DNA from: Escherichia coli
Lineage (GTDB): Bacteria; Pseudomonadota; Gammaproteobacteria; Enterobacterales; Enterobacteriaceae
Length of the DNA stretch: 64,000 nucleotides
Strand: one strand, 5' to 3'
Assembly (NCBI RefSeq): GCF_022846255.1
Contig: NZ_AP025682.1
In this document: positions 1,567 through 43,836 of the stretch, piece after piece
Layout of the letters: each line of letters opens with the position of its first letter
Position numbering within the stretch: the stretch's first letter is position 1
Notes under the pieces: model-generated
Seen by the model: the letters and a program-made list of their open reading frames with translations, nothing else
The model's database searches: none
What the model was told of the DNA's origin: nothing
Made by a program: the position numbers and the translations under genes

Positions 1567-2154
1567 TTAATAGAAAATGCGTACCGCGCAATAGACCAGC
1601 AGCAGCGCGAGCACGATATTTAACTGGCGACCATACTGGCGAAACAATCGCTGAAACAGGTGCCCCGCCAGCGCCCAGCACACATTGCCAAACGTCCCAA
1701 TCATCGCCAGCAAAACGCTGACGCCAATTATCCAGCTTAGCGCCTGCGTTTGCGGCAGGACAAACGTCGACAGTGCTGTAATGCCATACAAAATGATTTT
1801 GACGTTCACAAACTGCAAAGCAAAGCTGGCCCAAAAACTGATTGGTTTTGTCTGAAGCCCATCTTCCTTTGTTGGACTGGTAGCGATTTTCCACGCCAGC
1901 CAGACAATATATGCCGCCCCCGCCCAACTCAACAGATGCACTGCTGCCGGGTCGATAACAGCCAGTGAAAACGAAATTCCCGCGCATAGCAACATGACGA
2001 TTAAAAATCCCAGACTCATCCCTGCCAGCACGCGAGTACTCTGACGAAATCCGTGCGTTGTAGCTGAGCTAAGGGCGAGAATATTGTTCGGTCCTGGCGT
2101 CATGGCGGTAATCAGGGTGTAAGTCCAAAAAGCACTTAAAAGGGTCGGTGTCAC
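1567..2154 (-). CDS. eamB: cysteine/O-acetylserine exporter (LysE/RhtB family)
   Basis: 195-aa hydrophobic ORF at the conserved position between grcA and yfiE. Confidence 0.9.
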   Translation of the reverse strand: MTPTLLSAFWTYTLITAMTPGPNNILALSSATTHGFRQSTRVLAGMSLGFLIVMLLCAGISFSLAVIDPAAVHLLSWAGAAYIVWLAWKIATSPTKEDGLQTKPISFWASFALQFVNVKIILYGITALSTFVLPQTQALSWIIGVSVLLAMIGTFGNVCWALAGHLFQRLFRQYGRQLNIVLALLLVYCAVRIFY

Positions 2155-2256
2155 TTGTTATCTCCTCTGTTTTGGTAGACAGTACCCGACACGGAACATT
2201 TAAAAAAATGAATGTTTTTACATTCTAAATTCGATATTTTCGATAGGTTTGGGGTT

Positions 2257-3138
2257 ATGGATCTGCGCCGTTTTATTACACTTAAAACCGTGGTGGAAGA
2301 GGGTTCCTTTTTGCGAGCTTCGCAAAAATTGTGCTGTACACAATCGACGGTGACTTTTCATATTCAGCAGCTTGAGCAGGAGTTCTCGGTACAATTGTTT
2401 GAGAAAATTGGTCGACGAATGTGCCTTACCCGCGAAGGAAAAAAGTTGCTGCCGCACATCTATGAACTTACCCGAGTGATGGATACGCTTCGTGAGGCTG
2501 CGAAAAAAGAGTCGGATCCGGACGGGGAACTACGCGTTGTTTCAGGCGAAACGTTGCTCTCTTACCGAATGCCGCAGGTGTTGCAGCGTTTTCGGCAACG
2601 CGCTCCAAAAGTGCGTTTATCGTTGCAGTCGCTGAACTGTTACGTGATCCGTGATGCGCTACTGAATGATGAGGCCGATGTCGGGGTTTTTTATCGCGTA
2701 GGGAATGATAATGCTCTGAACCGGCGAGAGTTGGGTGAACAATCGCTGGTGCTGGTGGCTTCACCGCAAATTGCAGATGTCGATTTTACTGAGCCGGGAA
2801 GACATAACGCCTGTAGTTTTATTATCAATGAACCGCAATGTGTCTTCCGCCAGATATTTGAGAGCACGCTGCGCCAGCGACGGATCACGGTGGAAAACAC
2901 CATTGAGCTTATAAGTATCGAAAGCATCAAGCGTTGTGTCGCGGCAAATATCGGGGTCAGTTACCTGCCGCGCTTTACAGTGGTAAATGAACTTGCGAGT
3001 GGCGAATTAATCGAATTGCCTTTTGGCGAACAGTCGCAGACGATTACGGCAATGTGCGCTCACCATGCCGGAAAAGCGGTTAGCCCGGCGATGCACATTT
3101 TTATTCAGTGTGTTGAAGAGTGTTTTTTGCCGGGATAA
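2257..3138 (+). CDS. yfiE: LysR-family transcriptional regulator
   Basis: 293 aa from the internal ATG (MDLRRFITLKTVVEEGSF...), N-terminal helix-turn-helix; conserved synteny. Confidence 0.85.
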   Translation: MDLRRFITLKTVVEEGSFLRASQKLCCTQSTVTFHIQQLEQEFSVQLFEKIGRRMCLTREGKKLLPHIYELTRVMDTLREAAKKESDPDGELRVVSGETLLSYRMPQVLQRFRQRAPKVRLSLQSLNCYVIRDALLNDEADVGVFYRVGNDNALNRRELGEQSLVLVASPQIADVDFTEPGRHNACSFIINEPQCVFRQIFESTLRQRRITVENTIELISIESIKRCVAANIGVSYLPRFTVVNELASGELIELPFGEQSQTITAMCAHHAGKAVSPAMHIFIQCVEECFLPG

Positions 3139-3170
3139 AAATAATGCCGGGCTTAAACCCGGCATTGAGA

Positions 3171-4505
3171 TTACTCTTCTGTCGTTTGCGGTGGCACGCC
3201 CGTTCCGCTCGGTTTACGGCGCTTACCAATATTTTTGGTGTCGCGATGGCGTTTTTTCACCCGCGGCTTATCTTTCTCTTTAGCTTTTTTCTTCTCGGCG
3301 CGTTTAGCCAGTACTTTCTTCGATGGCTTGCCGGTCTGCTTCTCGCTTGGCGCACGCGTTTTCGGGCGTAACTCATCAATTACACGAGCTTTAATTGGCT
3401 CTTCAATATAGCGACCAACTTTGCCCAGCAGCAGATGGTCATGGGCTTCTACCAGCGAAATTGCGGTGCCTTTACGACCGGCGCGCGCGGTACGTCCGAT
3501 ACGGTGCAAATAAGTATCGCCACTGCGCGGCATATCGAAGTTAAAGACGTGGCTGACGTCAGGAATGTCGATACCGCGCGCGGCAACATCGGTTGCAACC
3601 AGTACGTTTACGCGACCTTCGGTCAAACGCTTGATCGCTTCGTTACGCTTGCCCTGTACCATCTCACCTTCGAGATAGCAGTTGTTGATGCCCGCTTCGC
3701 GCAGCCAGTTTGCCAGCTCATGCACACGCTCACGCTTACGCACAAACACAATTGAGCGGGTCGCTTCCGGCTGTTTTAACAGGTGCACCAGCAATGCGGT
3801 TTTATGTTCCAGGTCATCGGCGCGGTAATACCACTGATGAATTTTTTTGCGCTCACGGGTGGACGGATTGGCAGAAACCTCCACCGGATCTTCCAGCAGA
3901 CGCTCGGCAAAGTCCTGAATCGCATCGCCTTCCAGCGTTGCCGAAAAGAGCAGGGTCTGTTTACGCCAGCGCGTTTCGCCAGCAATATGTTCGATATCCT
4001 GAGCGAAGCCCATATCCAGCATACGGTCTGCTTCGTCGAGGATCAGCGTTTCAACCGCGCGGCAATCGAAGTTCTCTTCTTTTATGTATTGCAGCAGACG
4101 TCCGGTCGTGGCGACCACAATGTCCTGGTTTTCGCTGAACACTTCTGCGTGGTTCATATAGGCCACGCCGCCGGTGATGGTGGCGATATCCAGATGCGTA
4201 TGTTTCGCCAGTTCGCGGGCATGATCGGCCACCTGCATCGCCAGCTCGCGAGTTGGGGTGAGGATCAAAATACGCGGCGGACCGGATTTCTTACGTGGGA
4301 AATCGAGCAGGTGCTGCAACGCTGGCAGCAGATACGCCGCCGTTTTACCGGTGCCTGTCGGCGCAGAACCGAGTACATCACGGCCATCGAGCGCAGGCGG
4401 AATGGCGGCAGCCTGAATGGCGGTCGGGCGAGTGAAACCTTTATCCTGGAGGGCTTCCAGCAGGCTTTCGTCGAGTTCAAGTTCGGAAAAAGTCGTTACA
4501 GTCAT
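3171..4505 (-). CDS. srmB: ATP-dependent DEAD-box RNA helicase SrmB
   Basis: 444 aa; APTGTGKT Walker A, DEAD box ([14 protein letters not shown]), basic C-terminal tail. Confidence 0.95.
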
Positions 4506-15672: not shown

Positions 15673-16404
15673 ATGGCTGAATTACTGTTAGGCGTCAACA
15701 TTGACCATATTGCAACGCTGCGTAACGCACGCGGTACTGCTTACCCGGATCCGGTGCAGGCGGCGTTTATTGCCGAGCAGGCGGGAGCAGACGGCATTAC
15801 CGTGCATTTACGTGAAGATCGCCGCCACATTACCGACCGCGATGTGCGCATCCTGCGTCAGACGCTGGATACCCGCATGAATCTGGAGATGGCGGTGACC
15901 GAAGAGATGCTGGCGATCGCCGTTGAGACGAAGCCACATTTTTGCTGTCTGGTACCGGAAAAGCGTCAGGAAGTAACAACCGAAGGCGGCCTGGACGTCG
16001 CTGGACAGCGTGAAAAAATGCGCGATGCCTGCAAACGTCTGGCGGAGGCCGGGATCCAGGTTTCTCTGTTTATCGACGCCGATGAAGAGCAGATCAAAGC
16101 TGCGGCAGAGGTTGGCGCACCGTTTATCGAGATCCACACAGGTTGCTATGCTGATGCCAAAACTGACGCCGAACAGGCGCAAGAGCTGGCGCGTATCGCC
16201 AAAGCCGCGACCTTTGCCGCCAGTCTCGGTCTGAAAGTTAACGCTGGTCACGGTCTGACCTATCACAACGTGAAAGCCATTGCCGCCATTCCTGAGATGC
16301 ACGAACTGAATATCGGTCATGCCATTATTGGTCGTGCAGTGATGACCGGACTGAAAGATGCGGTGGCAGAAATGAAGCGTCTGATGCTGGAAGTGCGTGG
16401 CTAA
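15673..16404 (+). CDS. pdxJ: pyridoxine 5'-phosphate synthase
   Basis: 243 aa from the internal ATG ([21 protein letters not shown]...). Confidence 0.93.
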
Positions 16405-36849: not shown

Positions 36850-37422
36850 ATGACTAAGAAGCTGAAAGCAAAACACGAGGTGTTTTGTCGCGAGTTTCTT
36901 GTCGATCTGAATGCTACACAAGCAGCTATTCGCGCAGGCTACGTCTCCAGGCGAGCACATGTTACGGGGGCTGAACTATACGGTAAACCTGAGATACGCG
37001 CCCGTATTAACGAGCTAAAGCAGGAGCGTATTGATCAACTGGGCATTGATGCGAATTATGTGCTGATACGACTGGTTGAGATCGACAGGCTCGATGTGGC
37101 TGACATCCTGGAGGACGATTTAAGTATTAAGCCTCTGTCTGCGTGGCCGGAATCGTGGCGTCGGTACCTGAGTGGATTTAACCTCGCTGAAATGTTTGAG
37201 GGGCGAGGAGATGACAGAGAAATGGTCGGGATCCTTAAAAAGATTAAGTGGCCTGATAAGGTTAAAAACCTTGAGTTGCTTGGGCGTCATGTTTCTGTTC
37301 AGGCGTTTAAAGACAACGTCAAAAATGAAGTGACTGGCGCTGATGGAGGACCCGTCAGAACAGAAATTACCAACTTAACGCCGGAGCAGGCTGCAGAGGC
37401 GTATAGAAAAATGATGGGCTAA
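36850..37422 (+). CDS. terminase small subunit
   Basis: 190 aa; [12 protein letters not shown] helix-turn-helix-like N-terminus; immediately precedes the large subunit. Confidence 0.65.
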
Positions 37423-37424
37423 GT

Positions 37425-39047
37425 ATGCCGTTACCATTCCCCTTCGATTTTAAACATCCTGATTACCAGATGGTTTTTGAATGGCGGATGGAACGCCTGC
37501 AGCGCATTCGCCAGAATCCTGAAATATTGCCTGCACTAAAACAGTTTTACCGAACTAATCCGGCTCAGTTCATCATCGACTGGGGCATGACAACGGACCC
37601 GCGTAATATTGATTATGGCCTGCCGGTGACCATTCCGTTTTTACTCTTCCCTAAGCAGGAGGAGTGGATCCACTGGATTATGGAACGCTGGGGCAATCGG
37701 GAGAATGGTATTACCGAAAAATCCCGTGAAATGGGGCTCAGTTGGACCGCGATCGGACTGGCATGTTCGCTTTGTCTCTTCAACAAAGAAATGGTTATCG
37801 GTTTCGGCTCCCGTAAAGAGGAATACGTCGACAGCACCGGTGACCCGAAAGCATTGTTCTGGAAGGCGCGCAAGTTCGTGGAAACACTGCCTGTAGAGTT
37901 TCGCGGTTCGTGGAGCGAGAAGAAGCACGCGCCATATATGCGTGTTGAGTTTCCTGAAACTGGTGCCGTTATCAAAGGCGAGGCTGGCGATAATATTGGT
38001 CGTGGTGACCGTACCACGCTTTATCTGGTTGATGAGGCTGCATTCCTTCAGCGTCCTCTGCTGATTGATGCGGCGTTGTCACAAACGACGCGTTGCCGTA
38101 TCGACCTGAGTTCAGTTAACGGCATGGCGAACCCGTTCGCTCAGAAGCGTCATGGCGGGAAGATACCAGTATTCACATTCCACTGGCGGGATGATCCTCG
38201 CAAGGATGAAGAGTGGTATCGCAGGGAATGCGAGAAAATCGATAATCCGGTGGTGGTGGCACAGGAACTTGATCTGAACTACAGCGCATCAGCGGAAGGC
38301 GTCCTGATTCCATCCGAATGGGTACAGGCTGCCGTTGATGCGCATATCAAACTGGGTATCCAGCCAACAGGCAAACGACTTGGCGCGATGGATGTCGCCG
38401 ACGAAGGCAGGGACAAAAATGCCTTTTCCACCCGTCATGGCTTCCTCCTGGAAAATGTGCGGGAATGGTCCGGTGTGGGCAGCGACATTTATCAGTCCGT
38501 CGAGAAGGTTTTCGGCTTTTGCGAACAGGATAACCTCGAAGAGTTTCGCTTTGACGAGGACGGGCTGGGCGCTGGCGTTCGCGGCGATGCACGCGCTATC
38601 AACGAACTGCGTAACGCTGCGCGTCGACCGTCAATACTCGCCACACCGTTTCGAGGTAGTGGCGCGGTATTTGATCCGGATGATGAAGCTGTTCGCGGGG
38701 ACAACGGGCAAGCCGCACGTCTGAACAAGGACTTCTTCGCTAACGCCAAAGCCCAAAGCTGGTGGCGGTTACGTAAACTTTTTCAGAATACCTGGCGCGC
38801 CGTGGTTGAAGGTATGGCTTACAACCCGGACGAAATCATCTCAATCAGCAGTAGCATGGCACTCAAAGATAAACTCATCATCGAGCTTTCGCAGCCGACC
38901 TATTCCATTAATGGTGTGGGAAAAATCGTTATTGATAAACAGCCTGATGGGACCCGGTCGCCAAATCTTGCCGACTCGGTGATGATCAACTATGCCCCAA
39001 TGAATTCAGCCCTGAACATCTGGGAGTTGCTAGGGAGACAGGCCTGA
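37425..39047 (+). CDS. terminase large subunit
   Basis: 540 aa; position and size; acidic [10 protein letters not shown] Walker-B-like motif. Confidence 0.65.
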
Positions 39048-40513
39048 TGGCACGAAACAAACAAGCCCTGCGGCGAACTGCGCAGGCCACAGCTGATGGT
39101 TATGAGAATTTTATCGCCCGCGTAGGGATGCAGACACCTAACCAGCACTCAGCATCCACCTACCGGGCTAATTTCACCAGTCGTAACCGCATGCTGGTGG
39201 AATGGTCCTATCGTTCTTCCTGGATCATCGGCGAAGCAGTCGATGCTATCCCGGATGATATGACCCGCAAAGGCATTCGCATCACTTCGGAAATTGATGC
39301 AAAAGATCGTGGCATTCTCGAATCACAACTGGATGAGTTGCAAATCTGGGATGCGCTGAATGACGTGCTGAAATGGTCGCGCCTCTACGGCGGCGCGGTG
39401 GGTTTCATCATGATTGAGGGGCAGGCACCAATGACCCCGCTGCGACCCGAAACCATCGGTAAGGGCAAGTTTAAGGGGATTCTCCCGCTCGACCGCTGGA
39501 TGATTGACCCGGTACTGACCCGCCGCATTAAAGATATGGGGCCGGACCTGGGTAAACCTGAGTTTTATGATGTGGTGACCACAGCAACGGGAATTCCTGC
39601 CTGGCGCATTCATCACAGTCGCCTGATTCGCTTTGATGGCGTCACGCTGCCATTTCAGCAGAAGATGACCGAGAACGAATGGGGAATGTCGGTTGTAGAG
39701 CGTATCTGGGATCGTCTTACCGCGTTCGACAGCGCTACTGTCGGTGCGGCGCAGCTGGTCTACAAGGCGCATTTGCGTACCTACAGCGTGGAGAAGCTAC
39801 GCGAGCTTATCGCACTTGGTGGTCCTGCGTATGAAGCGTTGCTGAAGAATATTGACCTGATTCGACAGTTCCAGAGCAATGAAGGCATGACTCTCATGGA
39901 CTCGCGGGATAAGTTTGAAACCCATCAGTACAGCTTCAGTGGTCTGGATGACATCCTTTCACAGTTTGCAGAACAGATTAGTGGCGCTGTTGGTATCCCA
40001 CTGGTGCGGTTGTTCGGACAGTCCCCGAAGGGATTTTCTACCGGCGATGCAGACCTTGCCAACTATTACGACCGGGTAAGTTCGTTGCAGGAGAGGCGTT
40101 TACGTCTTCCGGTGCGGCGGATACTGGACATCATGCATCGTTCGGAACTTGGCAAGCCGCTCCCGGATGATTTTACATTTGAGTTTAACCCGCTCTGGCA
40201 AATGTCTGATGTCGATCGTTCAACGGTGGCATTAAATACCACCAACGCAATCAGTACAGCGCTGGGTGATGGTCTGATGACACTGAAAGCTGCTATGACT
40301 GATTTGCGCGAAAATTCTGACGTAACCGGCATCGGGGCATCCATTACCGACGAGGACATCGAGAATGCCGAAGACGAAGCGCCGCCCGGCATCGGCGAAC
40401 CTGATGACGAACCGCAGGAACCGTCAGGCGGAAATCCGCTATCGAACCAGCCTACGCAGGATAGCGCGGGCGGTCGGGGACATCGTAAATGGTCGCTACG
40501 ATGGTTCAAATGA
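39047..40513 (+). CDS. portal protein
   Basis: 488 aa; start overlaps the terminase stop (ATGA); acidic C-terminus. Confidence 0.6.
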   Translation: MARNKQALRRTAQATADGYENFIARVGMQTPNQHSASTYRANFTSRNRMLVEWSYRSSWIIGEAVDAIPDDMTRKGIRITSEIDAKDRGILESQLDELQIWDALNDVLKWSRLYGGAVGFIMIEGQAPMTPLRPETIGKGKFKGILPLDRWMIDPVLTRRIKDMGPDLGKPEFYDVVTTATGIPAWRIHHSRLIRFDGVTLPFQQKMTENEWGMSVVERIWDRLTAFDSATVGAAQLVYKAHLRTYSVEKLRELIALGGPAYEALLKNIDLIRQFQSNEGMTLMDSRDKFETHQYSFSGLDDILSQFAEQISGAVGIPLVRLFGQSPKGFSTGDADLANYYDRVSSLQERRLRLPVRRILDIMHRSELGKPLPDDFTFEFNPLWQMSDVDRSTVALNTTNAISTALGDGLMTLKAAMTDLRENSDVTGIGASITDEDIENAEDEAPPGIGEPDDEPQEPSGGNPLSNQPTQDSAGGRGHRKWSLRWFK

Positions 40514-41138
40514 CAGTATCACGGAAATTATTGAGGCGCTGGAACGCTACAGTGAAATCATAACCCCCTGGGCGACAAAGGTCGCGGAAAACTTTACCGC
40601 CGACATTGTGCGCAAGAATGATGAGCAGTGGCGTAAACACAGCAAAACCATCAGCCGTGAGCTACGCAATCTGGTAAACAGTGCCCCTCCAGGGCAGGTG
40701 ATGAAATCCATCGTTGCTGAACAGGTTAAGTACATCAAATCGCTACCCCTCGAGGCGGCTGACAGGGTGTACGACATCCAGAATCGGGCGATAGAAGCTG
40801 TTGTTACCGGTGGGAGAGCGGAACATTTTGCTAAAGAAATAGCAGCATCGGGTGATATAGCAAAGTCCAGAGCTGACCTGATTGCCTGTACTGAACTTGG
40901 ACGTGCAACCGGCGCGCTGGATCAGGCGCGTGCGCTGTCAATTGGTTCGAATGGTTATATCTGGCGTACAGCCGAAGATGGTGATGTCAGGCATTCTCAT
41001 CGGGAAATGGAAGGTAAATTTGTCGAATGGGGCAAACCTCCAACGCTTGACGGCATGACAGGTCACGCTGGCGAGCTCCCGAATTGTCGCTGTAATAAAG
41101 AAATTGTTTTTCCCACCTCCCATTCTTACCCCGCCTGA
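40365..41138 (+). CDS. head morphogenesis protein (Mu F / SPP1 gp7-like)
   Basis: C-terminal HSHREMEGKF...GELPNCRCN motif typical of this family; 5' end overlaps the portal gene by about 110-150 nt, start uncertain. Confidence 0.55.
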   Translation: MPKTKRRPASANLMTNRRNRQAEIRYRTSLRRIARAVGDIVNGRYDGSNDSITEIIEALERYSEIITPWATKVAENFTADIVRKNDEQWRKHSKTISRELRNLVNSAPPGQVMKSIVAEQVKYIKSLPLEAADRVYDIQNRAIEAVVTGGRAEHFAKEIAASGDIAKSRADLIACTELGRATGALDQARALSIGSNGYIWRTAEDGDVRHSHREMEGKFVEWGKPPTLDGMTGHAGELPNCRCNKEIVFPTSHSYPA

Positions 41139-41152
41139 ATCGCAGGTAACAC

Positions 41153-42373
41153 ATGAAATATTTTTTCAATACCCGGCTGGGGGAAACCCGCTATCAGCTG
41201 GCTGACGGCTCGTTGCTGTGCAGAGACGTGCCGATAGGACGAACAGGTAAGCAGCTCTATGGTGCTGATGACCTGCCAAAACTGAAACCCGATAAGTTCG
41301 GTGAAATAGTCGTCACGCGTTCTCCTGAGCAGGTATTCCATCCCGCCACGCTTGCCTCATTCGAAGGAATGAGTATCACGGTGTTGCATCCCGAGGATGA
41401 AAACGGGGATGTGCGGCTGGTGAATCCAGAGAACTGGAAAGAGCTCGCGGTCGGGCATCTTCAGAATGTCCGGCGCGGGGCGGGTGTGCAGTCTGATTTG
41501 ATGCTGGCTGACCTTATCGTCAAAGACGAAAACGCCATTCAGCTGATCGAAGATGGCCTGCGCGAAGTGTCGTGTGGCTATGACGCGGAATATAAACAGG
41601 CTGAGCCGGGTAAGGCTCAGCAGGTCGATATTACCGGAAACCATGTGGCTCTTGTCCCTAAAGGCAGAGCCGGAAATCGTTGTGCAATTGGAGACAGAGA
41701 CACAATGGCAAATCAAAAGAAAAGCTGGTGGACCCGCATGCGCACGGCCATCAAAACGGGTGACGCTGACACCATGAACGAACTGGTGGAGTCGGCTCCC
41801 GCATCGGTTACAGGAGATGAGGGGGATTTGCCGCAGGGCGTTAATCTCAACATCAACCTGTCCCCGCAGCAACCGCTACCGGACAAAGCACCAGAGATGG
41901 GCGGAGGTCCAACCGGCGACAGTGATGATGACCTCAAAACATTACTGAAAGCCCTGCTGGCTAAGCTGGAAGGAAATGCGACGGGCGATAACGACAATAA
42001 GCCTGACGATAATCCGACCGGTGACGGCGAGGACGATGAAGAGGAAACCACGATTACTGGTGACTCAGCCTGGCGTGCCGAAGTTATCGTTCCGGGTATC
42101 GATCTGAGCCGTAAGATGAAACCGACCGCGTTCAAACGTGAGGTTCTGGCTTCTGCTGACAAAACGCTGGTTCGCCAGATAGTCGGTGATGCGGATATCC
42201 GCAAATTACCGAAACAATCGGTCGACATGGCGTTTAATGCCGTGTCTGAGATTGCCAAAGGGCGAAACACCCGCGCCACCACCGGCGATGCACAGCGCCC
42301 AAACATGGGCATGACCAGTATCGCTTCCCTGAACAAACAAAACGCTGAATTCTGGGCAAACCGTAAAGGGTAA
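41153..42373 (+). CDS. putative head protease/scaffold protein
   Basis: 406 aa with a long acidic low-complexity segment; position between morphogenesis and capsid genes. Confidence 0.4.
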   Translation: MKYFFNTRLGETRYQLADGSLLCRDVPIGRTGKQLYGADDLPKLKPDKFGEIVVTRSPEQVFHPATLASFEGMSITVLHPEDENGDVRLVNPENWKELAVGHLQNVRRGAGVQSDLMLADLIVKDENAIQLIEDGLREVSCGYDAEYKQAEPGKAQQVDITGNHVALVPKGRAGNRCAIGDRDTMANQKKSWWTRMRTAIKTGDADTMNELVESAPASVTGDEGDLPQGVNLNINLSPQQPLPDKAPEMGGGPTGDSDDDLKTLLKALLAKLEGNATGDNDNKPDDNPTGDGEDDEEETTITGDSAWRAEVIVPGIDLSRKMKPTAFKREVLASADKTLVRQIVGDADIRKLPKQSVDMAFNAVSEIAKGRNTRATTGDAQRPNMGMTSIASLNKQNAEFWANRKG

Positions 42374-42376
42374 AAA

Positions 42377-42883
42377 ATGAATAATGTATTTCTGTACCGG
42401 ATGCCTGTTGGCATTGCCGGGGCCGTCTCTCGCCCGCAGGACTTAACCGTCGAACCGGTGGTCCTTAAATCCGATAACGCCTTCGCTGCCTATGGCCTGG
42501 CTGGTAAATACGATGATGACGGTTTTTTCGTGCCGCTGGCAGATGGTGATACCGCAGACAAGGTGAAGGGGATCTACGTGCGCCCTTATCCGACCACTTC
42601 GCAGCCGGACATGGTTCGCCAGGTGGGGACTGGCAAGAACTTCCCGGGCGACGCCATGAAGCGTGGCTACGTGACCGTTAATCTCGGTTCTGATTTTGAT
42701 GCCAGCACCATCAAAAAAGGCGACCCGGTATACGTTGTCGTCTCCACTGATGAATCCATCAAAGTGCCGCTGGGTGGATTCATGGCCACGTCAGTCAGTG
42801 GCAAAAACGTGGTGCTGACCAACGCTGAATTCACAGGTGCCGGTGATGCTGACGGCAATGCAGAAATTTCCTGGAAGATTTAA
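42377..42883 (+). CDS. putative head decoration/structural protein
   Basis: 168 aa; position just before the major capsid gene. Confidence 0.35.
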   Translation: MNNVFLYRMPVGIAGAVSRPQDLTVEPVVLKSDNAFAAYGLAGKYDDDGFFVPLADGDTADKVKGIYVRPYPTTSQPDMVRQVGTGKNFPGDAMKRGYVTVNLGSDFDASTIKKGDPVYVVVSTDESIKVPLGGFMATSVSGKNVVLTNAEFTGAGDADGNAEISWKI

Positions 42884-42894
42884 GGAACAGACGA

Positions 42895-43836
42895 ATGATT
42901 ACTTTTGATCAGGCAACCGTTGACAGCTCTGGTGCCTTTCTCATCGGGGAGCTGGAGCGACTCGACCAGACGCTGAACCTGCCACTGGTGGGGTACACCT
43001 GGACCCGCGATATTCAGTTGCGTGAAGATGTCTCCATCGCAGATGACATTTCCAGCTGGACGAATACCAGCTTCGCCGCTGCGGGTACTGGTGCAAATCC
43101 GAATGGCAAAAACTGGGTAGGCAAAGACTCAACCGCTATTGCTGGCGTGAACGTGGATATCGGCAAATCCGGTAACCCGCTGAACTTGTGGGGGATGGAA
43201 CTTGGCTGGACGGTCATAGAATTGCAGGCTGCTCAGCAGATCGGACGCCCGATTGATACGCAGAAGTATGACGGGATGCAACTGAAATGGCAGATGGATA
43301 ACGATGAACAGGTATATGTTGGCGATTCCGCATTAAACCTGAAAGGTCTTGTTACCCTGGACGGCGTGCCTGTCAACAACGCTGCCAAAACGTGGGCAAC
43401 CTCAACACCGGACGAAATCCGCGCAAGCATTAACCAGGTGCTGTCTGATGCGTGGGCCGCTTCCGGTTACTCTGTGGTTCCGCGTGATTTGCTGATCCCG
43501 CCTGAGCAGTTTGCTCTGTTGTCCAGCATCATCGTTTCATCTGCGGGTAACCAGTCCCTGTTGACGTACCTTCAGACCAACACCATCAGCTATCACCAGA
43601 ACGGTGTTCCGCTGAATATCCGCGCGGTTAAATGGCTGAAAGGCCGTGGTGTGGGGAATAAGGATCGCATGGTTGCGTACACCAACGATAAAAAATACGT
43701 CCGCTACCCGCTGGTTCCGCTTCAGAGCGTGCCGGTGCAGTATCGCGGTCTGTATCAGATCGTCACTTACTACGGCAAGCTGGGTGCAGTCGAGCCAGTG
43801 TACAAAGAAACCATTTCGTACGTTGATGGCATTTAA
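42895..43836 (+). CDS. major capsid protein (putative)
   Basis: 313 aa; size and position in the head module. Confidence 0.55.
   Translation: MITFDQATVDSSGAFLIGELERLDQTLNLPLVGYTWTRDIQLREDVSIADDISSWTNTSFAAAGTGANPNGKNWVGKDSTAIAGVNVDIGKSGNPLNLWGMELGWTVIELQAAQQIGRPIDTQKYDGMQLKWQMDNDEQVYVGDSALNLKGLVTLDGVPVNNAAKTWATSTPDEIRASINQVLSDAWAASGYSVVPRDLLIPPEQFALLSSIIVSSAGNQSLLTYLQTNTISYHQNGVPLNIRAVKWLKGRGVGNKDRMVAYTNDKKYVRYPLVPLQSVPVQYRGLYQIVTYYGKLGAVEPVYKETISYVDGI

Follow-up and report, generated by a model that had tools for sequence, protein, structure and literature searches.

The window, a stretch of 64,000 nucleotides (nt) from the Escherichia coli contig NZ_AP025682.1, carries a prophage head module on its + strand. 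Within this module the gene for the portal protein is followed directly by that for a Mu F-like (SPP1 gp7-like) minor head protein, here called MuF, and the two coding regions overlap. The open reading frame (ORF) of MuF lies in the +1 frame of the portal gene, where it is open upstream only to 40326. It has ATG codons at 40365–40367 and 40404–40406, and the portal stop codon TGA occupies 40511–40513. An earlier note on this DNA had put the overlap at about 150 or about 110 nt, depending on the start codon, and we measured 149 nt from the first ATG and 110 nt from the second (portal 39047..40513, MuF 40365..41138). As the note also remarked, this is longer than the usual coupling overlaps of 1–4 nt; one gene earlier in the same operon, the genes for the large terminase (TerL) and the portal share a single base in the usual coupling geometry. 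A mis-called start, a non-ATG start downstream of the portal stop and a frameshift fusion had been offered as explanations. The correct reading, absent from that list, is a real, conserved dual-coding overlap. As predicted from the sequences, the pair is very probably made up of two out-of-frame genes on the late head-assembly mRNA.

The gene identities given in the earlier note were borne out. The portal protein matches Pfam family PF06381 with 354 bits and NCBIfam TIGR01555 with 251.8 bits (cut-off 196.25), which places it in this family. A search of Protein Data Bank (PDB) sequences showed its homology to a solved structure, the Pam3 portal 8hds (query residues 15–413, E 2.7e-37), and matched the E217 gp19 portal at E 2.6e-14. 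MuF matches PF04233 (Phage_Mu_F) over residues 137–244 with 60.8 bits against a cut-off of 29.6, and TIGR01641 with 40.0 bits against 39.65. It also has the position of a MuF family member, directly downstream of the portal gene in a packaging and head module. This is where muf genes are found, and the SPP1 protein gp7, which binds the portal, occurs in 1–2 copies per capsid (PMC5576092).

Table 1. Features of the portal/MuF junction and of the surrounding head module.
Feature	Position	Strand	Family or remark
Portal gene, 488 amino acids (aa)	39047..40513	+	PF06381 Phage_portal_3/DUF1073; TIGR01555, HI1409 family
MuF gene (Mu F-like / SPP1 gp7-like minor head protein), 257 aa at full length	40365..41138	+	PF04233
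Putative Shine-Dalgarno sequence GAGGA for MuF	40352..40356	+	8 nt before ATG 40365; portal codons Glu-Asp of the ITDEDIE motif
Dual-coding overlap, 149 nt (predicted)	40365..40513	+	Portal residues 440-488 (frame 0); MuF residues 1-49 and part of codon 50 (frame +1)
Second in-frame MuF ATG (Met14)	40404..40406	+	Start chosen by RefSeq/PGAP
Portal-tail motif P-L-S-N-Q-P-T-Q-D-S (family consensus PVSxxPTxDS)	40436..40465	+	Same bases encode MuF helix residues IRYRTSLRRI; from portal and MuF alignments
Portal C-terminal motif L-R-W-F-K	40496..40510	+	Shares bases with invariant MuF Y45-D46-G47-S48 (40497-40508)
Small terminase (TerS) gene	36850..37422	+	PF03592
Large terminase (TerL) gene	37425..39047	+	No Pfam match at E<=0.01
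DUF2213 protein gene	41153..42373	+	PF09979
Cement protein gene	42377..42883	+	PF23982 / PF22758
Major capsid protein gene	42895..43836	+	PF09950

Conservation of the MuF N-terminus

In the window alone, about 50 open codons in an alternative frame could arise by chance in roughly 10% of cases. The overlap is not due to chance, because comparative data across relatives show it to be conserved. We used two sets of relatives. The close-relative set holds 81 unique sequences of 82–99.7% nucleotide identity in a gap-free alignment. For the species-level set, one genome per species was scanned with tblastn, which gave 80 loci whose MuF proteins are 43–89% identical; they belong to Gamma-, Beta- and Alphaproteobacteria. 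The 78 loci with both a portal and a MuF gene were used for the overlap counts, and in 74 of them MuF lies in the +1 frame of the portal.

The MuF N-terminus is almost certainly encoded inside the portal ORF, judging from these alignments. Homologues with as little as ~45% identity still conserve residues ~20–50 (AEIRYRTSLRRIARAVGDIVNGRYDGSN), all of which are encoded before 40513. The conserved pattern over residues ~20–51 is (A)E(I)RYRTSL(RR)IA(RA)VG(D)IV(NG)RYDGSNDS, with aligned homologues of 60–90% identity in Xenorhabdus, Arsenophonus, Morganella, Providencia, Pantoea and Rahnella. Homologues from the first five of these genera (60–70% identity) align from residues 1–14 onwards and share AE.RYRTSL..IA..VG.IV.G.YDGSNDS, and the tblastn matches in the 80 species-level loci start at query residues 1–26. 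Whatever start codon is assumed, the conserved core (taken to begin at the Ala22-aligned residue) reaches into the portal ORF in 68/78 loci, and in 57 of those 68 the overlap is at least 60 nt. The earlier note had asked whether conservation begins only after 40513; by homologue alignment we found the opposite, with conservation setting in well before that position.

In three loci (L071, L072 and L076) the two genes overlap by 4 nt or not at all, and the same N-terminal helix of MuF is encoded after the portal stop. The N-terminal segment is thus ancestral MuF coding sequence, because the helix is also present in these relatives. An AlphaFold2 (AF2) model of MuF from an alignment of 45 sequences shows residues 1–15 as disordered, followed by helices at 11–44 and 49–106; the predicted local distance difference test score (pLDDT) is ~75 for about residues 21–80. 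The curated domain models in Pfam and NCBIfam span only residues ~137–244, so the N-terminus cannot be placed by them, and the PDB sequence search found no solved structure of a MuF relative.

Selection on both reading frames

Substitutions in the 81 close relatives were counted by Fitch parsimony on a neighbour-joining (NJ) tree and divided by the mutational opportunity (kappa 3.5). Upstream, where only the portal is encoded, the portal-synonymous rate is 0.75 and the nonsynonymous rate ~0.035. Downstream, where only MuF is encoded, the corresponding MuF rates are 0.59–0.60 and ~0.08. Within the overlap, changes that are synonymous in the portal and nonsynonymous in MuF occur at a rate of 0.146, those synonymous in MuF and nonsynonymous in the portal at 0.268, and those nonsynonymous in both at 0.037. 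Compared with the flanks, portal-synonymous changes are reduced ~5-fold from 40365 on and MuF-synonymous changes ~2.2-fold, so that both frames are under constraint.

The constraint differs along the overlap. Between 40368 and 40403, upstream of the second ATG, 11 portal-synonymous/MuF-nonsynonymous changes were observed against 42 expected (P~1e-8), and 6 changes of the converse kind against 36. The tight constraint on both frames in this segment places MuF coding upstream of 40404. Change at portal codon position 3 likewise falls from 3.35 to 0.85 per site in 40365–40403 (Mann-Whitney P = 6e-4). In a codon table of the region, the variable position is portal position 3 up to about 40361 and MuF position 3 thereafter. 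Between 40421 and 40510 the MuF constraint dominates (11 portal-synonymous/MuF-nonsynonymous changes against 98.7 expected), and the portal tail is still constrained (50 MuF-synonymous/portal-nonsynonymous changes against 84.8 expected).

The 17 bases between these two segments (40404–40420) are unusually variable in both frames, with a both-nonsynonymous rate of 0.18 against 0.01–0.04 in the rest of the overlap. They encode a linker in both proteins (D-D-E-P-Q-E in the portal and M-T-N-R-R-N in MuF). An antisense ORF at 40066..40509 (minus strand, 147 aa, TTG start) was considered as a third coding frame and rejected. It is intact in 78/81 close relatives, and over most of its length portal-synonymous change keeps its usual high rate, so that we take it to be a shadow ORF, probably non-coding.

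The overlapped portal tail

Across the Enterobacterales, the portal alignment shows two motifs in the tail, PVSxxPTxDS and then a terminal LRWF followed by 0–11 residues. The LRWF motif is kept in nearly all portals of this order, and in 80/81 close relatives. Its bases are shared with the invariant Y-D-G-S of MuF, where codon choice is close to frozen. In 49 species-level loci these residues are encoded by TAC (49/49), GAT (47/49) and GGT (48/49), against a background usage in the same genes of 62%, 52% and 32%. Other synonymous codons for Y-D-G would alter the portal R, W or F, and TAT would create a portal stop. By this pattern of codon use, the portal tail is selected in its own right, with LRWF kept through frozen synonymous sites in MuF. 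Portal residues 447–488 are disordered in the AF2 model (pLDDT <50). The solved portal homologues from the PDB search align only to residue 413–452, and thus give no information on the overlapped tail.

The overlap is conserved across Enterobacterales. Shorter overlaps of ~26–110 nt without LRWF occur in distant relatives (Acinetobacter, Burkholderiales, Alphaproteobacteria). As read from these alignments, the arrangement appears ancestral to this portal/MuF module in Proteobacteria, with a portal tail that reaches further into MuF in the Enterobacterales. The likely history is that MuF initiation inside the acidic C-terminal motif of the portal is ancestral, and that the portal ORF was later extended over the MuF helix in the enterobacterial lineage, where it gained a constrained terminal motif.

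One Serratia marcescens locus is mosaic (L061, NZ_VFMJ01000001; portal 1662–3125, MuF 2980–3729). Its portal body is 87% identical to that of the window. From just after ITDEDI, the tail and the whole of MuF (48% identity) come from another sublineage. The recombination junction lies at the start of the overlap, so that the tail of the portal has moved together with MuF, apart from the body of the portal. In four Xenorhabdus loci (L015, L016, L018 and L023) the portal has a different sequence ahead of its tail (…MGSVGNGF…), and two of these portals (L015 and L016) are ~70 aa longer (ORFs of 556–558 aa). The MuF start is shifted in all four, with an overlap of 134–137 nt and GGAG as the Shine-Dalgarno sequence, and the PTGDS…LRWF tail is kept in each.

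These observations can be joined in a further reading, which we offer tentatively and hold to be doubtful. The enterobacterial portal may have overprinted the N-terminal helix of MuF and so gained a functional C-terminal peptide (PVSxxPTxDS ... LRWF). This peptide might act as a docking or regulatory element, for example by contacting MuF, the terminase or packaged DNA in the head. The overlap would then be a genetic lock on an interacting pair, beyond compaction and coupling. Because the nucleotides are shared, the portal tail and the MuF N-terminus would be forced to co-evolve and to move together in mosaic exchange, as the S. marcescens locus suggests.

Start codon of MuF

Translation of MuF probably starts at ATG 40365 and not at 40404, as far as can be predicted from the start signals. 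The Shine-Dalgarno sequence GAGGA (40352–40356) and the ATG at 40365 are invariant in 81/81 close relatives, and wobble bases in the spacer between them vary (7 changes at 40357 and 14 at 40360). Among the species-level loci, 45/78 have an ATG (GTG in Yersinia) with AGGA or GGAG at exactly 8 nt, and an overlap of 134–179 nt with a mode of 149. MuF therefore has an independent, conserved start signal inside the portal gene. Read from ATG 40365, the protein begins MPKTKRRPASANLMTNR... and several homologues open with a basic M-(P/R)-K...RR segment that aligns to Met1 and has the same M-(P/R)-K-x-x-x-R-R character. The RNA around this start (40315–40425) is no more stable than its shuffles (z = +0.98). 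A model in which a hairpin gates the coupling was dropped, as the fold near the MuF start is weaker than in shuffled controls. A promoter and terminator scan found neither on the + strand inside the portal/MuF junction.

In the closest alternative the overlap is real and MuF starts at ATG 40404 (Met14), giving a protein of 244 aa and an overlap of 110 nt, or both ATG codons are used and two isoforms are made. PGAP calls this start in CB9615 and MINF_2E, the cluster of 244-aa MuF proteins has >1000 member sequences, and for some homologues the annotated protein begins at the corresponding position (MSTHQQ..., MTTRKQ...). Residues 1–13 are poorly conserved and predicted to be disordered. However, no more than 49/81 close relatives have ATG at 40404; the other 32 have GCG (16), TCG (12) or ACG (4), and the ATG is also missing from SEN34-like lineages. 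It has no upstream Shine-Dalgarno sequence, whereas GAGGA and ATG 40365 are invariant, and the constraint on the MuF frame is already present in 40368–40403 (11 changes against 42 expected). We consider this alternative unlikely.

A mis-called start would mean that MuF begins downstream of the portal stop, at 40530 (ATT/ATG) or at GTG 40608, and that the upstream extension is open by chance. Long overlaps in prokaryotic annotation are frequently errors. Both downstream positions are used in several deposited annotations, and clusters of 202 and 176 aa exist. In the window, however, the codon at 40530 is ATT, which is not a start codon, and a Shine-Dalgarno sequence is absent at both positions. 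Across Proteobacteria, few residues of MuF are as well conserved as the 30 that precede the portal stop, and portal-synonymous sites in 40421–40510 are suppressed ~9-fold. In the AF2 model the residues upstream of the portal stop form a helix (11–44) that is followed directly by the helix at 49–106. This explanation, and with it the non-ATG start downstream of the portal stop that the earlier note had proposed, is extremely improbable, since the conserved N-terminus is encoded before 40513.

Frameshifting and proposed mechanism

Programmed +1 (or −2) frameshifting in the overlap, which would yield a portal–MuF fusion protein, is likewise a reading to which we give almost no weight. MuF does lie in the +1 frame of the portal in 74/78 loci, and portal and MuF proteins are known to associate (PMC5576092). 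Passage from portal to MuF would need a +1 or −2 shift, and in the search for slippery sites that the earlier note had called for, the portal frame proved free of X_XXY_YYZ heptamers between 40250 and 40513. At the homotriplet codons where re-pairing in +1 is conceivable (GGG_G at 40334 and CCC_G at 40385) the critical base varies, so that no +1 site is conserved, and the −1 frame is closed by nearby stops. The context of the portal stop differs between lineages (AAA TGA or AAA CGA TAG), and selection on the portal tail extends as far as the portal stop. For its own initiation MuF has an invariant Shine-Dalgarno sequence and ATG. The segment 40315–40425 holds no stable RNA structure, and the spacing of its sole conserved Shine-Dalgarno sequence, 8 nt upstream of an ATG, is that of an initiation site. 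Neither a slippery site (40250–40513) nor a stimulatory structure (40315–40425) was thus found. With a conserved start signal for MuF and a selected portal tail, the independent translation of two proteins is the economical reading.

Under independent translation from a dual-coding overlap, ribosomes translating the portal would continue to UGA at 40511–40513. Other ribosomes would initiate independently at AUG 40365, recruited by the GAGGA that is built from portal codons of the ITDEDIE motif. Frame 0 of the shared 149 nt would give the predicted disordered C-terminal tail of the portal (residues 440–488), ending in LRWF. Frame +1 would give the basic N-terminal arm of MuF (residues 1–15) and most of its first helix. 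We infer that the overlap may couple the expression of two physically interacting proteins. Elongating portal ribosomes that cross the MuF initiation site would keep MuF output below portal output, and the portal tail and MuF N-terminus would form a unit that recombination cannot split.

Several points weigh against this account. The coupling, stoichiometry and recombination-lock functions are our own inference, and the ends of both products are predicted. A few relatives manage with an overlap of 4 nt or none (L071, L076). RefSeq/PGAP prefers ATG 40404, and both starts could serve in this lineage. MuF residues 2–13 are conserved in basic character only, with an AF2 pLDDT <50. The strict pattern of a Shine-Dalgarno sequence 8 nt before the ATG is absent from 33/78 species-level loci, most of them from distant taxa in which the spacing differs. 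In 40368–40403, the strongly conserved portal motif or the needs of the initiation region, and not MuF coding, could account for part of the constraint. The NJ tree and Fitch parsimony were applied to recombining prophages, and parsimony undercounts changes, so that the Poisson P values are approximate; the effect sizes are large.

Relation to known overlaps

Annotated overlaps of the same kind exist in two well-known phages. In Mu, gp29 and gp30 share 20 nt (16073–16092), and in SPP1, gene 6 and gene 7 share 44 nt (3802–3845); in both, MuF lies in the +1 frame of the portal. Like the window, these pairs have muf right after the portal, a same-strand, out-of-frame terminal overlap in the +1 frame, and a MuF domain (PF04233/TIGR01641). 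The overlap in the window is 3–7 times longer and covers a whole MuF helix. Its portal belongs to PF06381/DUF1073 and not to the families of Mu gp29 or SPP1 gp6, and the overlapped portal tail has conserved motifs of its own (PVSxxPTxDS, LRWF). The Mu and SPP1 overlaps suggest that muf genes generally tend to begin within the gene for the portal. The overlap in the window is a long member of this existing pattern and not a new mechanism; it is neat, but would not surprise a specialist.

The origin classes of overlapping genes are listed in PMC2268670, and according to reviews of such genes the younger, overprinted parts tend to be disordered and less constrained than the older frame (PMC8227390). 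The portal/MuF overlap resembles the classical long out-of-frame overlaps of phages and viruses, which arise by stop-codon loss, start-codon shift or overprinting. Both frames are constrained and predicted to be translated, and the younger portal tail is predicted to be disordered and is less constrained. Unlike classical nested overlaps, it involves the ends of two neighbouring structural genes that are both old. It gives rise to no new protein; the portal is lengthened by a tail.

A limited literature search brought up papers on MuF or on overlapping genes in general, and neither a published description of this portal/MuF overlap nor proteomics for SEN34-like phages. What stands out is the deep conservation of a dual-coding stretch of 149 nt shared by two virion proteins that interact, with a Shine-Dalgarno sequence made of conserved portal codons. 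It offers a tractable system for testing long terminal overlaps, with regard to the expression ratio and to the linkage of interacting partners.

Distribution and annotation of the head module

The head module of the window is 99.7% identical to that of a prophage of E. coli O55:H7 CB9615. Among complete E. coli genomes 381/5,426 carry it, and it is found as well in Salmonella, Citrobacter and others, in Salmonella phage SEN34 (Brunovirus) and in the Escherichia phages vB_EcoM-606R2 and vB_EcoM-689R2. The module of these phages and of the CB9615 prophage has 84–99.7% nucleotide identity and the identical overlap architecture. It differs from the window in annotation only, with MuF called from the equivalents of 40404, 40530 or 40608 and thereby lacking 13, 55 or 81 N-terminal residues. 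The 40404 start (244 aa) is that of PGAP. SEN34-like records use an ATG at the equivalent of 40530 (202 aa), the vB_EcoM-689R2 record uses GTG 40608 (176 aa), and some metagenome callers use 40365 (257 aa). Most public records of this prophage head module therefore start MuF 13, 55, 81 or more residues late, and the truncated entries lose a conserved helix. The error will recur with gene callers in which long overlaps are penalised.

Names also differ for the neighbouring genes. In RefSeq the TerL gene (37425–39047) appears as 'hypothetical protein', 'TerL protein' or 'PBSX family phage terminase large subunit'. Of the portal gene, only the first 36% (window 39047–39799, 753 nt) is left in E. 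coli B, BL21 and their derivatives, at 98.9% identity. This BL21-type remnant is named 'anti-CBASS protein Acb1 family protein' in RefSeq, while full-length copies are named 'DUF1073 domain-containing protein', a naming that looks inconsistent for a portal homologue.

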